Below, one piece after another: positions 1 to 22,484 of a stretch of DNA of 64,000 bases. Source of the DNA: Escherichia coli. Its GTDB lineage: Bacteria; Pseudomonadota; Gammaproteobacteria; Enterobacterales; Enterobacteriaceae. The position numbers and the translations under genes were made by a program. Position 1 is the first letter of the stretch, and each line of letters opens with the position of its first letter. Below the pieces are notes generated by a model. It worked only from the letters and a program-made list of their open reading frames with translations, ran no database searches and had not been told where the DNA came from. Location of the stretch: assembly GCF_016903815.1 (NCBI RefSeq), contig NZ_CP069973.1. One strand, written 5' to 3'.

Positions 1-1
1 G

Positions 2-3000
2 TGCTCGGTGTGTCCGGGCAGGATGACTTCGGGCAACCCGGTAAATCCGCTGCTGGGGGCGAAGGTGCTGCCCGGCGAGACGGACCTTGCGCTGCCCGGC
101 CCGCTGCCGTTCATTCTCTCCCGCACCTACAGCAGCTACCGGACGAAGACGCCTGCGCCGGTGGGGATTTTTGGCCCCGGCTGGAAAGCGCCTTCTGATA
201 TCCGCTTACAGATACGCGATGATGCACTGGTACTCAACGACAACGGCGGACGGAGCATTCACTTTGAGCCGCTGCTGCCGGGGGGGGCGGTGTACAGCCG
301 CAGCGAGTCAATGTGGCTGGTTCGCGGTGGTAAGGCAGCGCAGCCGGACGGCCACACGCTGGCACGGCTGTGGGCGTCGCTGCCGCCGGATATCCGGTTA
401 AGCCCGCATCTTTACCTGGCGACCAACAGCGCACAGGGACCGTGGTGGATACTGGGGTGGTCAGAGCGGGTGCCGGGCACTGAGGACGTACTGCCAGCGC
501 CGCTGCCGCCGTACCGGGTGCTTACCGGGCTGGCGGACCGCTTCGGGCAGACGCTGACGTACCGGCGTGAGGCCGCCGGTGACCTGGCCGGGGAAATCAC
601 CGGCGTGACGGACGGTGCCGGGCGGGAGTTCCGTCTGGTGCTGACCACACAGGCGCAGCGTGCGGAAGAGGCCCGCACCTCTTCGCTATCTTCTTCTGAC
701 CGTTCCCGCCCTCTCTCAGCCTCAGCGTTCCCCGACACACTGCCCGGTACGGAATACGGCCCCGACAGGGGTATCCGCCTTTCGGCGGTGTGGCTGATGC
801 ACGACCCGGCATACCCGGAGAATCTGCCCGGTGCGCCACTGGTGCGGTACACGTATACGGAAGCCGGTGAACTGCTGGCGGTATATGACCGCAGCGGGAC
901 ACAGGTGCGCGCTTTCACGTATGACCCGCAGCACCCGGGCCGGATGGTGGGGCACCGTTATGCGGGAAGGCCGGAGATGCGCTACCGCTACGACGATGCG
1001 GGGCGGGTGGTGGAGCAGCTGAACCCGGCAGGCCTGAGTTACCGCTACCAGTATGAGCAGGACCGCATCACCGTCACCGACAGCCTGAACCGGCGAGAGG
1101 TGCTGCATACAGAAGGCGGGGCCGGGCTGAAGCGGGTGGTGAAAAAAGAACTGGCGGACGGCAGCGTCACGCACAGCGGGTATGACGCGGCAGGAAGGCT
1201 CACGGCGCAGACGGACGCGGCGGGACGGCGGACAGAGTACGGTCTGAATGTGGTGTCAGGCGACATCACGGACATCACCACGCCGGACGGGCGGGAGACG
1301 AAATTTTACTATAACGACGGGAACCGGCTGACGGCGGTGGTGTACCCGGACGGGCTGGAGAGCCGCCGGGCGTATGATGAGCGGGACAGGCTGGTATCGG
1401 AGACATCGCGCAGCGGGGAGACAGTACGCTACCGCTACGATGACGCGCACAGTGAGTTACCGGCGACGACAACGGATGCGACGGGCAGCACCCGGCAGAT
1501 GACGTGGAGCCGCTACGGGCAGTTGCTGGCGTTCACTGACTGCTCGGGCTACCAGACCCGTTATGAATACGACCGCTTCGGCCAGATGACGGCGGTTCAC
1601 CGCGAGGAAGGTATCAGCCGTTACCGCCGCTATGACAACCGTGGCCGGTTAACCTCGGTGAAAGACGCACAGGGCCGTGAAACGCGGTATGAATACAACG
1701 CCGCAGGCGACCTGACTGCCGTTATCACCCCGGACGGCAACCGGAGCGAGACACAGTACGATGCGTGGGGAAAGGCGGTCAGCACCACACAGGGCGGGCT
1801 GACGCGCAGTATGGAGTATGACGCGGCAGGACGTGTCATCAGCCTGACCAACGAGAACGGCAGTCACAGCGACTTCAGCTACGATGCGCTGGACCGGCTG
1901 GTACAGCAGCGCGGCTTTGACGGGCGGACGCAACGTTACCACTATGACCTGACCGGAAAACTCACGCAGAGTGAAGATGAGGGGCTTGTCACCCTCTGGC
2001 ACTACGACGAATCGGACCGTATCACTCACCGCACGGTGAACGGCGAACCGGCAGAACAGTGGCGGTATGATGGCCACGGCTGGCTGAGAGAAATCAGCCA
2101 CCTGAGCGAAGGCCACCGTGTTGCCGTCCACTATGGCTATGACGATAAGGGCCGTCTGACCGGGGAGCGCCAGACGGTGGAGAACCCGGAGACGGGGGAA
2201 CTGCTGTGGCAGCATGAGACGAAACAGGCATACAACGAACAGGGGCTGGCAAACCGCGTCACGCCGGACAGCCTGCCGCCGGTGGAGTGGCTGACCTACG
2301 GTAGCGGTTATCTGGCGGGCATGAAGCTGGGCGACACGCCGCTGCTGGAGTACGCGCGCGACCGCCTGCACAGAGAAACGGTGCGCAGCTTTGGCAGCAT
2401 GGCAGGCAGTAATGCCGCATACGAACTGACCAGCACATACACCCCTGCAGGCCAGTTACAGAGCCAGCACCTGAACAGCCTGGTGTATGACCGTGACTAC
2501 GGGTGGAATGACAACGGCGACCTTGTGCGCATCAGCGGCCCGCGACAGACGCGGGAATACGGCTACAGTGCCACGGGCAGGCTGGCGAGTGTACGCACCC
2601 TCGCACCGGACCTGGACATCCGCATCCCGTATGCCACGGACCCGGCGGGCAACCGGCTGCAGGACCCGGAGCTGCACCCGGACAGTACACTCACGGCGTG
2701 GCCGGATAACCGCATCGCGGAGGATGCGCACTATGTCTACCGCCACGATGAATACGGCAGGCTGACGGAGAAGACGGACCGCATCCCGGCGGGTGTGATA
2801 CGGACGGACGACGAGCGGACCCACCACTACCACTACGACAGCCAGCACCGCCTGGAGTTCTACACGCGGATACAGCATGGCGAGCCACTGGTCGAGAGCC
2901 GCTACCTCTACGACCCGCTGGGACGGCGAATGGCGAAACGGGTATGGCGGCGGGAGCGTGACCTGACGGGGTGGATGTCGCTGTCGCGTAAACCGGAGGT

Positions 3001-4024
3001 GACGTGGTACGGCTGGGACGGCGACCACCTGACGACGGTGCAGACCGACAGCACACGTATCCAGACGGTATACGAGCCGGGAAGCTTCACACCGCTCATC
3101 CGCATCGAAACAGACAACGGCGAGCGGGAGAAAACGCAGCGGCGGAGCCTGGCGGAGAAGCTCCAGCAGGAAGGGAGCGAGGACGGACACGGCGTGGTGT
3201 TCCCGGCTGAACTGGTACGGCTGCTGGACAGACTGGAGGGGGAAATCCGGGCAGACCGCGTGAGCAGTGAAAGCCGCCAGTGGCTGGCACAGTGCGGGCT
3301 GACGGTGGAGCGGCTGGCGACACAGATAGAGCCGGTTTATTTACCTGAGCGAAAAATTCATCTTTACCACTGTGACCACCGGGGGCTGCCGCTGGCGCTC
3401 ATCAGCGAAGACGGCAATACGGCGTGGAGCGGGGAGTATGATGAGTGGGGAAACCTGCTGAATGAGGAAAACCCGCATCACCTGCACCAGCCGTACCGTC
3501 TGCCAGGGCAGCAACACGATGAGGAGTCAGGGCTGTATTATAACCGGAACCGGTACTACAATCCGTTGCTGGGACGATATATTACTCAGGACCCGATTGG
3601 GCTGGCGGGGGGATGGAGTCTGTATGCGTATCCGCTGAATCCGGTGAATGGTATTGATCCATTAGGGTTAAGTCCTGCAGATGTAGCGTTAATGCGAAAA
3701 AAAGAACAACTAAACCATCAAAGAGCATGGGATATATTATCTGATACTTATGATGATATGAAGAGATTAAATTTAGGTGGGACTGATCAATTTTTCCATT
3801 GTATGGCATTTTGTCGAGTGTCTAAATTAAATGACGCTGGTGTTAGCCGATCAGCGAAAGGGCTGGGTTATGAAAAAGAGATTAGAGATTACGGGTTAAA
3901 TATGTTCGGTATGTACGGCAGAAAAGTAAAGTTATCCCATTCTGAGATGATTGAAGATAATAAAAAAGACTTGGCTGTAAATGAACATGGGTTGACATGT
4001 CCATTTACACAAGATTGCTGGTAA
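2..4024 (+). CDS. rhsD: Rhs family YD-repeat protein (classical RhsA-D type), 5' end outside window; core ends at the DPIGL motif (~3600) and is followed by a lower-GC C-terminal toxin tip that is truncated by IS1
   Basis: 1338-aa continuous ORF with many YD-repeat motifs (RYRYD, YEYD, YDxxGR) and the PxxxxDPxGL core boundary '[18 protein letters not shown]'; symbol is from its position upstream of mnmH as in K-12, not from the tip sequence. Confidence 0.85.
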
Positions 4025-4074
4025 TGCTGCCAACTTACTGATTTAGTGTATGATGGTGATTTTAAGGTGCTTGC

Positions 4075-4350
4075 GTGGCTTCCATTTCCATCAGATGTCC
4101 TTCCTGCTCCGCTACTGAAGGCGTGGTGCGTAACGGCAAAAGCACTGCCGGACATCAGCGCTATCTCTGCTCTCATTGCCGTAAAACATGGCAACTACAG
4201 TTCACTTACACCGCCTCTCAGCCCGGTACGCACCAGAAAATCATTGATATGGCCATGAATGGCGTCGGATGTCGCGCCAGTGCACGCATTATGGGCGTTG
4301 GCCTCAACACGGTTTTACGTCACTTAAAAAACTCAGGCCGCAGTCGGTAA
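4075..4350 (+). CDS. insA: IS1 InsA protein
   Basis: 91-aa ORF '[37 protein letters not shown]...' matches remembered IS1 InsA. Confidence 0.9.
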
Positions 4351-4772
4351 CCTCGCGCATACAACCGGGCAGTGATGTGATTGTCTGCGCTGAAATGGAC
4401 GAACAGTGGGGCTACGTCGGTGCTAAATCACGTCAGCGCTGGCTGTTTTACGCGTATGACAGGATACGGAGGACGGTTGTGGCGCACGTCTTCGGTGAAC
4501 GCACTCTGGCCACACTGGAGCGTCTTCTGAGCCTGCTGTCGGCCTTTGAGGTCGTGGTATGGATGACGGATGGCTGGCCGCTGTATGAATCACGCCTGAA
4601 GGGAAAGCTGCACGTTATCAGCAAGCGTTACACTCAGCGCATTGAGCGACATAATCTGAATCTGAGACAACATCTGGCAAGGCTGGGACGGAAGTCACTG
4701 TCGTTCTCAAAATCGGTGGAGCTGCATGACAAGGTCATCGGGCATTATCTGAACATAAAACACTATCAGTAA
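4269..4772 (+). CDS. insB: IS1 InsB (transposase reading frame, normally expressed as InsAB' by -1 frameshift)
   Basis: 167-aa ORF overlapping insA in a different frame, ending '...[12 protein letters not shown]'. Confidence 0.85.
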
Positions 4773-4855
4773 GTTGGAGTCATTACCAGATTGCTCAAAT
4801 AGATGTATTGATTATATTAATCCAGAGCATAAAAAAACGATAAAGGCTTTACAAG

Positions 4856-5347
4856 ATGCTGGCTATCTCAAGTAACATCTCAAAGATGGTAATATTTATT
4901 TTTGCTATTATAATCGTTGTTTTTTTATGCGTGACTACTTATCTTTATTTACACAAAGATGAATCTCTTGTAAGTAAGCATTACATAAACTATATGGCAA
5001 TACCAGAAAGTGATGGGGTTTTTACATGGCTCCCAGATTTTTTTCCGCATGTAGCGGTGGATATATCAATATCCACAAATGTAGAAGATGATTATTTTTT
5101 TTCTTATTTTTCCCTAACAATCGATGATGGGGGGAGGTTTAAGAAAACATTGACGGTGAGGGCCAGGGAACAAGTGGCGAAAATCGTATCAGAGAATGAT
5201 CCAGATACAAAAAAAGTGTGGTGTAAATATGGTAAAATACCAGGGCAAGGGGATAGCGTAAACCTTTTTTTTGTTGGTGAAATTAATGTTACGCATTATT
5301 TTATAACAAATATTGGAGCTGGATTGCCTGATGCTTGTGCAGAGTAA
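4856..5347 (+). CDS. Hypothetical protein with N-terminal hydrophobic helix; putative immunity protein for the upstream Rhs toxin tip (alternative start at 4886)
   Basis: ORF directly downstream of the Rhs toxin tip, low GC; its start overlaps the reconstructed pre-IS1 end of the Rhs ORF (stop at 4873-4875); function inferred from position only. Confidence 0.45.
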   Translation: MLAISSNISKMVIFIFAIIIVVFLCVTTYLYLHKDESLVSKHYINYMAIPESDGVFTWLPDFFPHVAVDISISTNVEDDYFFSYFSLTIDDGGRFKKTLTVRAREQVAKIVSENDPDTKKVWCKYGKIPGQGDSVNLFFVGEINVTHYFITNIGAGLPDACAE

Positions 5348-5631
5348 TTGCTTGAATTAAGAGTCTATCCCATATCGAAGTCGTCAACTTCGTAGTGAGG
5401 AAAAGTAAAATCCCTGACTGAGAAAAGACATGTCGGCTATTGTGTAAAGCCATATAGCTCAGACGATGAATATCTACTCGTATTCAGTTGTTTATTGAGG
5501 GTGAGTTCCGACCCTGAAACAACAAATAAAATGAATAGTCAGAGAGTTTACATAGAATTGCACTAGTCTTTTACGATATCTGACATTGTGTAATACATAT
5601 TCAGCCATGCATTAATTAAAATGTTTCGTGT

Positions 5632-6269
5632 TTAATGTGAGTCCCTATCTGAAAATAAATAATCCTTCCGGATTAAAATAAATTCTCGCCGGGAAAGAAA
5701 GAGGAAATAAACCATTAGCGGAAAACCAGCGGCACGCCAGGGTGACATGCCCCAGTACGGCGGCCCGATAGTCCAGGGTTCAGCGGGGGTACTGATAGTC
5801 GCGCCGACTGCATCGAGAACTCCATACAACTTTTTACGGAACGTCACCTGATAAAATTTGTTCAGTATCGTCTTTTGAGATTCTCAAGGTTATGGAGTAA
5901 CCAGACAGAACGGACACCACTGTCGGAGATAAAAACCCCCTGTTTACGCAGCTCGTTGCTGGCCCGGTGCTGACCATGTGTCGGGAAAGCGACGGTGTAA
6001 TCAACAACAGCCTGTTCAGTTGCCTCATCGGTACGGTTCTTAAGGTTAGGAGCGCGGCGACTACGATTAATCTGCACATCCACACCGCCTTCAGCGGCCA
6101 GTTCGCGGTAACGATAAAACGTTTCACGCGAAACGCCCATGATTTTACAGGCTTTTGATACGTTGCTGAGTTCTTCAGCCAGATTGAGCAAACCGGCTTT
6201 GTGTTTGATGACGGGATTGGCAGTATGAAGCATGAGAGTTACCTCTTGTTTTGGATAAGGATTCGACAC
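5632..6269 (-). pseudogene. Truncated transposase remnant (N-terminal helix-turn-helix region followed by frame-disrupted fragment); family uncertain, possibly IS481-like
   Basis: 135-aa ORF (5862..6269) with HTH-like 'SKACKIMGVSRETFYRYRELAAEGG', then a 71-aa ORF in another frame (5632..5847); no full-length transposase or inverted repeats found. Confidence 0.45.
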
Positions 6270-21434: not shown

Positions 21435-22484
21435 TTATTGCGCAAAGGGATTTTTCGTTTCGTATGACGTGTTATAAAGCGCGTCGGAAATTAAATACTG
21501 GTAAATATCATCAACAATTTCGATGCCTTCGACGGCGGCTTTGCGTTGTTTAATATCCTGATCCTGTCCGGGATAATAAACCTGGTTAAAACCGGGCGCG
21601 GGGGTTATGGCATTTAATTCGCGCATGGTCTGGCTAAGATGTTGACGGAATAGTTCGCTGGAGGAGAAAAAGTTCGGATTAATAACGATATGTAATTGCC
21701 CCAAATTACGCCCGGCGTGTAAATCGTCATACATCGAACTAACCTGTCGCCCGAACGGTAAGCCGAGTAAGACGCCTGAGAGGACGTCAATCATCATCAT
21801 CAGGCCATACCCTTTCGGCCCGGCGGCGGGGAGCAGAGCATGTACCGCGAACGGATCGGTTGTTGGTGCTCCGTTTTTATCGACCGCCTAGGTATCCGGG
21901 ATAGACATATTACGCGAGCGGGCGTCGAGCACTTTTCCCCATGCCTGTACGGTAGTCGCCATATCAAAGGTAAGGATCTCGTCGCCTTCTCCCGGCGCGG
22001 CAAAGGCCAGTGGGTTAGTACCGTAGTAAATTTCCGCGCCGCCAAACGGCACCACCATTGGATCGGACTGGCACATCGAAATGCCAATTAATCCGGCGCG
22101 GGCTGCCTGCTGCACAAAATAAGAGATTGCGCCGCTGTGACCCATCCGGCTGATACCGACCACCGCAACGCCATTTTGCTGGGCGGTTTTGATGGCATGT
22201 TCCATACCCATTTTCGCCGCGACCTGTCCGGCGGCATTGTCAGCATGTAAAATTGCTGAACATGGCCCGGTTTCTTCAAGACGAAACTCCGGTTCGCGGT
22301 TGGTGCCGCCTTTTGAAATGCGTTCCGCGTAGTATTCCACGCGCACCGCGCCATGAGAGTGGATCCCTCTGGCATCGGCGTAAACCAATACTTCAGCCAC
22401 GGTTGCAGCGTGCTCACGTTTTAACCCAGCCTGGCAGAGTTTATTCTCGATTAGCTGGTGGAGTGTTTCCCGACTGATTTTCAT
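21435..22484 (-). pseudogene. allD: Ureidoglycolate dehydrogenase interrupted by a single in-frame TAG at 21888-21890 (codon 199 of 349)
   Basis: ORFs 21888..22484 (198 aa) and 21435..21800 (121 aa) are in the same frame; the span is exactly 350 codons; sequence around the stop reads '...SIPDT*AVDKNG...'. Confidence 0.85.

Follow-up and report, generated by a model that had tools for sequence, protein, structure and literature searches.

The rhsD locus of some Escherichia coli strains raises the question of what is left of a toxin and its putative immunity gene when a mobile element enters the last codons of the toxin gene. In the window, which is the whole 64,000-nucleotide stretch of contig NZ_CP069973.1 (assembly GCF_016903815.1) that was analysed, a copy of the insertion sequence IS1 interrupts the 3' end of a Rhs polymorphic-toxin gene, and a gene of the YbbD family follows directly behind it. 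The order of the locus is ybbP, rhs, IS1, ybbD-like gene, ylbG pseudogene, mnmH and allS. The Rhs gene lies on the plus strand at positions 1–4024 with its first ~36 codons upstream of the window, and its open reading frame (ORF), 8–4024, is truncated with a stop codon at 4022–4024. The answer that the evidence favours, and that we regard as probable, is that IS1 disarmed the serum amyloid A (SAA)-like tip of this Rhs protein and left an intact candidate immunity gene behind.

The inserted element is exactly 768 bp long (4020–4787, plus strand) and its transposase is read in the same direction as rhs. It was recognised as IS1 from its length, its ORFs and its terminal inverted repeats, GGTAATGCTGCCAACTTACTGAT and reverse complement GGTAATGACTCCAACTTACTGAT, which agree at 20 of 23 positions. 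The ORF list contains insA (4075–4350) and the insB' frame (4269–4772), both on the plus strand, and the A6C frameshift motif AAAAAAC can be read on the same strand at 4326–4332. RefSeq names the element ‘IS1 family transposase, programmed frameshift’, and copies 100% identical to it are carried by Shigella plasmids. The element is flanked by the direct repeat AGATTGCT, whose left copy occupies 4012–4019 and whose right copy occupies 4788–4795; this 8-mer has no further copy on either strand of the window, and the repeat flanking IS1 cannot be extended to 9 bp. Target-site duplications of IS1 fall in the range of 8–9 bp. All features of the family are thus present, namely length, imperfect inverted repeats of ~23 bp beginning GGTRATG, insA and insB' joined by a −1 frameshift, target duplication and precise restoration of the target, and the inserted copy is active-looking. 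The event amounts to simple transposition of IS1, which duplicated 8 bp of the target and replaced the last 26 Rhs codons by a tryptophan codon and a stop.

Read in the frame of position 8, the Rhs ORF now terminates caa gat tgc tgg taa, that is QDCW*, and both the tryptophan codon and the stop are built from IS1 bases. Deletion in silico of positions 4020–4795, which comprise IS1 and one copy of the repeat, gives a protein that continues ...QDCSNRCIDYINPEHKKTIKALQDAGYLK to a stop at 4873–4875, with exactly 26 codons lost from the present gene. These codons (SNRCIDYINPEHKKTIKALQDAGYLK) together with their stop are stranded beyond the element as a tip remnant at 4795–4875 on the plus strand, its limits being set by the excision. 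The sequence-only reading of this DNA had proposed a 768-bp IS1 with a flanking 8-bp repeat, and on joining the flanks a restored ORF ending at 4873–4875 in place of the present QDCW*, at a cost of 26 codons. Coordinates and repeat were found again, and the restored frame is borne out both by excision in silico and by the natural allele of E. coli strain EFF60, to which we return below.

The interrupted gene has the architecture of a Rhs polymorphic toxin, in which a YD-repeat shell is followed by a core ending in DPxGL and by a tip of different base composition. The NCBIfam model RHS_core (NF041261) scores 2618.6 bits on the window protein against a cut-off of 2000 and ends at ORF residue 1221, YD repeats are present, and Rhs_assc_core scores 84.2 bits; the intact protein of EFF60 matches Pfam RHS_repeat, DUF6531 and RHS. 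The guanine-plus-cytosine content drops from 63.9% in the Rhs core to 36.7% in the tip, and the target of IS1 is this AT-rich 3' end. The part of the tip that the gene retains (3671–4018, plus strand) begins just after the DPLGL motif and encodes residues 1–116 of a 142-residue SAA-like domain. Across the 63.5 kb compared, the window differs at 3 positions from E. coli strain 7/2, and in the RefSeq annotation of that strain (NZ_CP023820.1, 570981–575959) the truncated gene stands as a 1375-residue ‘RHS element core protein’ (WP_021523019.1) with no pseudogene flag and the remnant as a separate 96-nt, N-terminally incomplete ‘hypothetical protein’/pseudogene. With the product entered as an intact coding sequence and the remnant listed apart from it, a reader of the annotation sees no sign of the truncation.

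The state of the locus before the insertion is preserved in nature. When 48 nt spanning the reconstructed target site were used as a probe, a single perfect match came up, in E. coli EFF60 (NZ_CP086678.1). The alignment of the EFF60 locus with the excised window spans 10,039 nt, is free of gaps and contains 3 mismatches. The Rhs protein of EFF60 has 1400 residues and ends ...AGYLK, and the YbbD protein encoded after it shares its accession with the YbbD of the window. Because EFF60 carries the exact empty site, chance is ruled out. The carriers were counted in 5,426 complete E. coli genomes at a query coverage of at least 80%. The whole interrupted configuration is found in 113 of them, the left junction in 103 and the right junction in 115; some 10 carriers may hold a second insertion of ~0.9–1.6 kb or a rearrangement near the left junction, and two may have lost the upstream part. 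The insertion event is recent, clonal and lineage-specific, since a segment of 2.2 kb shows 100% identity in the first 30 carriers listed, and the empty site persists in the near-identical EFF60. One carrier is annotated O102:H6, and the carriers WCHEC4533, WCHEC96200 and Z1002 are among the genomes compared in a study of sequence type 405 (ST405; PMC9037040). The uninterrupted tip with ybbD is present in 2,722 of the same 5,426 genomes and occurs in two arrangements, either on a full-length gene (strain 48 and, by annotation, O157:H7 and O26 strains) or as an orphan fragment behind rhsD-ybbC (GF8 and K-12). As the same tip belongs to the ylbH/ybbD module in K-12, the window lineage carries on its main Rhs protein what is an ‘orphan’ tip in K-12. 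At Rhs loci, tip arrangements of this kind are attributed to recombination between the main core and an orphan core fragment.

The tip itself is a bacterial SAA-like domain. On its own it matches the Pfam SAA family PF00277 with 22.5 bits (E 1.6e-4 to 2.6e-4), which lies below the curated cut-off of 30.8 bits. A word-index search returned close enterobacterial relatives only, whereas an exhaustive profile search collected 129 relatives of the tip. A profile of four tip sequences gave only marginal SAA matches in the PDB (E 0.09–0.8), and a profile of 60 relatives matched SAA structures with E-values of 2.9e-19 to 5e-11; PF00277 is matched individually by 50 of these 60 relatives, the best at 1.7e-26. 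The AlphaFold2 model of the tip has a mean predicted local distance difference test score (pLDDT) of 95.5 and a predicted template-modelling score (pTM) of 0.88, and in it six helices are predicted: H1 (residues 2–33), H2 (39–51), H3 (56–78), H4 (90–108), H5 (116–123) and H6 (129–137). In a Foldseek search the top seven PDB matches of the model are all SAA, each with a probability of 1.00 and a target-normalised template-modelling (TM) score of ~0.7. The AlphaFold2 model and the Foldseek matches show a four-helix cone plus a fifth helix, as expected of the SAA-Wnt clade of the Lipocone superfamily, which is defined by a fifth helix that packs between H2 and H4 (bioRxiv 10.1101/2025.01.14.632903). 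H4 of the tip reads AVNEHGL (N104, G107), the arginine of the sNxxGR motif being a leucine here. On these sequence and model matches the tip appears to belong to the prok-SAA branch of the Lipocones. The Burroughs/Aravind preprint lists prok-SAA among the tips of Rhs-type polymorphic toxins and offers the prediction, as a prediction only, that its members attack the head groups of lipids or lipid carriers from the periplasmic side (bioRxiv 10.1101/2025.01.14.632903).

The cut falls after tip residue Cys116 and takes away the last 18% of the toxin domain. The stranded remnant encodes the predicted helices H5 and H6, with boundaries from the AlphaFold2 model, together with Cys120 and Tyr123. Conservation was counted in 92 relatives below 60% identity. 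Upstream of the cut the truncated gene retains D39 (92 of 92), H43 (92), C44 (90), C48 (90), E70 (84), D73 (82), D96 (86), D100 (92), N104 (90), G107 (91) and C116 (86), and downstream of it C120 (cysteine in 89) and an aromatic residue at 123, tyrosine or phenylalanine in 69, are lost. All four cysteines (44, 48, 116 and 120) are present in 101 of the 105 members that cover both regions, and in one relative (P0137) Cys48 and Cys116 are missing together. On account of this conservation and co-loss, two disulfides probably link H5 with HCxxxC in H2, Cys120 taking part in one of them. Rhs-linked relatives share the terminal motif made up of H128, K129, T131, L135 and G139-Y140-L141 as far down as ~40% identity. 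As H5, H6 and one partner cysteine are lost, the truncated and encapsulated toxin is likely to be misfolded or unstable, and thus disarmed.

Natural tips that stop at the insertion point had been named in the sequence-only reading as the finding that would speak against it, and alignment of the restored tip to its homologues yielded none in the set with a profile match to position 120 or beyond, every member of which runs at least nine residues past the cut. Just two sequences end near it. One (P0010) ends a single residue past the cut, like the IS1-truncated product, and the other, from Hafnia (P0011), was considered as a natural end three residues past the cut and rejected, because the apparent end results from a frameshift at a 4-bp repeat, beyond which the coding sequence of the tail persists in another frame. 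The orphan tip of Hafnia alvei (L005, 4470–4580) is of interest in its own right, with its frameshift at the 4-bp repeat AGATAGATAGATG located a few codons downstream of where IS1 cuts the E. coli tip and its ybbD split too, which amounts to an independent decay of the same module.

The gene left downstream of IS1 is an intact member of the YbbD family, annotated at 4856–5347 on the plus strand with an alternative start at 4886, and it encodes a putative cognate immunity protein of 163 residues. Its product scores 373.4 bits on NCBIfam NF011298 (cut-off 326) with residues 1–163 covered, the family being also represented by Pfam PF26610 (YbbD_head), and is identical to WP_000879780.1, an accession common to uninterrupted genomes. 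An N-terminal hydrophobic helix, MVIFIFAIIIVVFLCVTTYLYL, is visible in the sequence. The annotated ATG overlaps the restored end of Rhs by 20 nt, and uninterrupted genomes are annotated with the same overlap, in agreement with the earlier claim that the downstream frame is intact and that its start lies within the restored Rhs end. An AAGG motif precedes the ATG at 4856 by 9 nt. The YbbD homologue of Kluyvera starts and aligns at the second ATG, which may be the true start of ybbD, and in that case there would be no overlap with the end of Rhs.

YbbD is taken to be the cognate immunity protein, probably membrane-anchored, because its homologues adjoin related tips in E. coli, Kluyvera and Hafnia and diverge together with them. 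In Kluyvera the homologue directly follows a related tip, the tips being 54% and the YbbD proteins 30% identical (E 7e-18), and in Hafnia a homologue is likewise found directly after a related tip. A metagenomic Rhs gene with a related tip is followed by an ORF of 168 residues that is weakly similar to YbbD and has a hydrophobic N-terminal segment. A membrane anchor on YbbD would fit a toxin that acts in the periplasm. For Lipocone toxins, the immunity proteins are reported to be either lipoproteins or transmembrane proteins; the preprint that describes them does not mention YbbD by name (bioRxiv 10.1101/2025.01.14.632903).

The proposed course of events is therefore short. IS1 jumped into the rhs gene at the rhsD locus near its 3' end, the tip lost the predicted helices H5 and H6, Cys120 and the aromatic residue at 123, and the toxin would have been disarmed, while the intact YbbD may still protect against neighbours that bear this common tip. 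With the toxin disarmed and YbbD intact, the locus would be functionally equivalent to an orphan immunity gene. The persistence of ybbD would need no selection, since the insertion is too young for the gene to have decayed. In another lineage, E. coli MSHS 472 (L009, 4539–5701), an IS3 element abuts the end of an orphan tip and ybbD is missing, leaving a tip without its putative immunity gene; since IS3 here replaces ybbD, the locus is a repeated target of insertion sequence activity.

Several points weigh against this account and they concern both of its halves. The polar residues that are conserved family-wide (D39, H43, E70, D73, D96, D100, N104 and G107) all survive the truncation, and as residues of catalytic type are thereby kept, some residual activity of the truncated tip is possible. 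The disulfide pairing is deduced from the conservation and co-loss of the cysteines, and certain distant relatives extend just 9–16 residues past the cut point, so that H6 is not universal in the family. Literature searches found no toxicity or immunity experiment on the tip or on YbbD, and this lineage may not have been delivering the Rhs protein at all. In a simple promoter scan of 3900–5500, the 68-bp interval that separates ybbD from IS1 yielded no convincing sigma-70 site, so that expression of ybbD may be poor, and immunity would then be retained at the DNA level only. It could be argued from such points that the truncated toxin is still fully or partly active, having lost an accessory C-terminal cap from an intact catalytic four-helix core, and that ybbD is needed against self-intoxication. 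Besides the surviving residues of H2 to H4, this would accord with the short tails of some bacterial relatives, with RefSeq treating the 1375-residue product as an intact coding sequence and with the alignment of animal SAA, which follows the profile to position 107 only and so places H5 and H6 outside the universal core. However, the truncation removes the nearly invariant Cys120 and leaves its partner cysteine unpaired, it deletes the very fifth helix that defines the SAA-Wnt clade, and the relatives with a match to position 120 or beyond all extend past residue 116, so that an active toxin is considered unlikely. That the whole configuration might be an artefact of assembly or annotation, with an IS1 copy misplaced into a repetitive Rhs region, draws on the fact that Rhs cores and IS1 are multi-copy (a median of 11 matching places per genome) and can confuse assemblers. 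The insertion nevertheless lies in the unique AT-rich tip outside the repeated core and is bounded by a perfect target duplication, and identical junctions recur in over 100 complete genomes that many laboratories assembled independently, so the artefact was rejected, its probability being next to nil. The claim that the toxin is disarmed gains support from conservation, through the loss of Cys120, Tyr/Phe123, H5 and H6, and stays a deduction in view of the polar residues kept in H2 to H4.

The other half of the claim, that immunity is retained, holds for the reading frame, whereas its function is argued from synteny and IS1 now cuts ybbD off from the promoter of rhs. Insertions of IS1 are polar, and the promoter of the element is weak and repressed by the element itself. 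Given this polarity, ybbD would have to rely either on a promoter close by or on transcription that continues out of IS1. Within the scanned region there are 5 promoter-like matches compared with 3.7 ± 2.4 in shuffled sequence, which is no excess. Genomic systematic evolution of ligands by exponential enrichment (SELEX) has placed a site for the RNA polymerase holoenzyme between ylbH and ybbD in K-12 (PMC3946193), but it is reported without sequence and cannot be placed relative to IS1. An opposite possibility is that the insertion was selected through ybbD, outward transcription from IS1 or a hybrid promoter raising its expression and creating a well-protected non-producer. The IS1 transposase frame does point at ybbD, with the element ending 68 bp upstream of it, a promoter-like GTTACA-17-CATAAT is found inside IS1 on the plus strand at 4627–4655, and the wide distribution of the tip (2,722 of 5,426 genomes) makes immunity plausibly valuable. 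Yet no promoter-like match spans the right end of IS1 or lies in the 68-bp spacer, the number of matches does not exceed that of the shuffles, the polarity of IS1 acts in the other direction, and hitch-hiking with the spread of a multidrug-resistant clone would account just as well for the near-clonal identity of the carriers, which makes selection by way of ybbD very improbable. The broader proposal that the insertion is adaptive in the spreading multidrug-resistant ST405 group, be it by making an immune non-producer with ybbD possibly up-regulated by IS1 or by altering the activity of the truncated toxin, is improbable as well. A probably disarmed Rhs tip with an intact candidate immunity gene remains the preferred reading of the locus.

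Further decay is seen elsewhere in the window. A second Rhs locus lies on the minus strand at 54112–61351 and includes vgrG (59450–61351) and a DcrB-related gene (58961–59422). The vgrG-linked Rhs frame (54112–58941, minus strand) comprises 1609 codons with an internal stop at codon 740, and orphan fragments of Rhs and PAAR, accompanied by small ORFs, follow downstream. To judge from the reading frames, both Rhs toxins of the window look inactivated. The orphan array of the second locus is ended by an ISAs1-family (H-repeat-like) transposase gene at 48159–49295 on the minus strand, as annotated by RefSeq in strain 7/2. Two more genes on the minus strand are pseudogenes of the lineage, namely allD, encoding ureidoglycolate dehydrogenase (21435–22484, internal stop at codon 199), and nfrB (45724–47961, internal stop at codon 376). 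The ylbG pseudogene behind ybbD (5868–6233, minus strand) is a helix-turn-helix N-terminal fragment of a transposase-like protein, and its position is kept in all E. coli loci compared.

These results bear on how such loci are read. Because RefSeq calls the 1375-residue product intact, toxin inventories of these clinical strains would overcount functional Rhs effectors. The two IS1 junctions provide a marker, by polymerase chain reaction (PCR) or in silico, for one clonal group of clinical E. coli. The long-unexplained K-12 pair ylbH/ybbD can be assigned as an SAA-like (Lipocone) toxin and a membrane-anchored candidate immunity protein. EFF60 with its intact tip and the IS1 carriers, which are separated by 3 substitutions in 10 kb at the locus, form a natural pair on which the need of prok-SAA for its C-terminal disulfide-stapled helices could be addressed.

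Compared with known systems, the tip resembles other prok-SAA domains and animal SAA (PDB 4ip8, 4q5g and 7zh7) in its four-helix cone and in the motifs DxxFH of H2, xE..D of H3 and D...D..aN..G of H4. The bacterial versions differ from animal SAA by four conserved cysteines and an extra C-terminal pair of helices, and their enzymatic action is a prediction for the family. The fate of the locus has a parallel in a Ralstonia pangenome survey, where an insertion sequence breaks a toxin gene and the immunity gene survives, and where, among decayed clusters, the toxin is mutated in 34.7% and the immunity gene in only 17.5% (PMC11481896). That case concerns another organism and another toxin family, whereas the insertion described here is fixed in one E. 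coli clonal group. Disruption by an insertion sequence with a surviving orphan immunity gene is already well documented, and the window offers an ordinary new instance that is unsurprising to specialists. Within E. coli, EFF60 and strain 48 share the locus architecture of the window, the YbbP and YbbD proteins of EFF60 even having the same accessions, but lack IS1 and encode Rhs proteins of 1400 residues (EFF60) and 1404 residues (strain 48). The ylbH-ybbD orphan of K-12 carries the same tip and downstream gene at 95.6% DNA identity over 1,065 nt, lies like the window locus between ybbP and mnmH, and likewise does not present the toxin module as an intact, expressible full-length Rhs protein. 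In K-12, however, the tip sits on a promoterless core fragment behind another toxin and immunity pair, downstream of rhsD-ybbC, and ybbD is split into ORFs of 86 and 57 residues (L003, 6853–8010), unlike the intact orphan copy of GF8. In the window, by contrast, the tip stands on the full-length main Rhs protein, the toxin is broken by IS1 and ybbD is intact.

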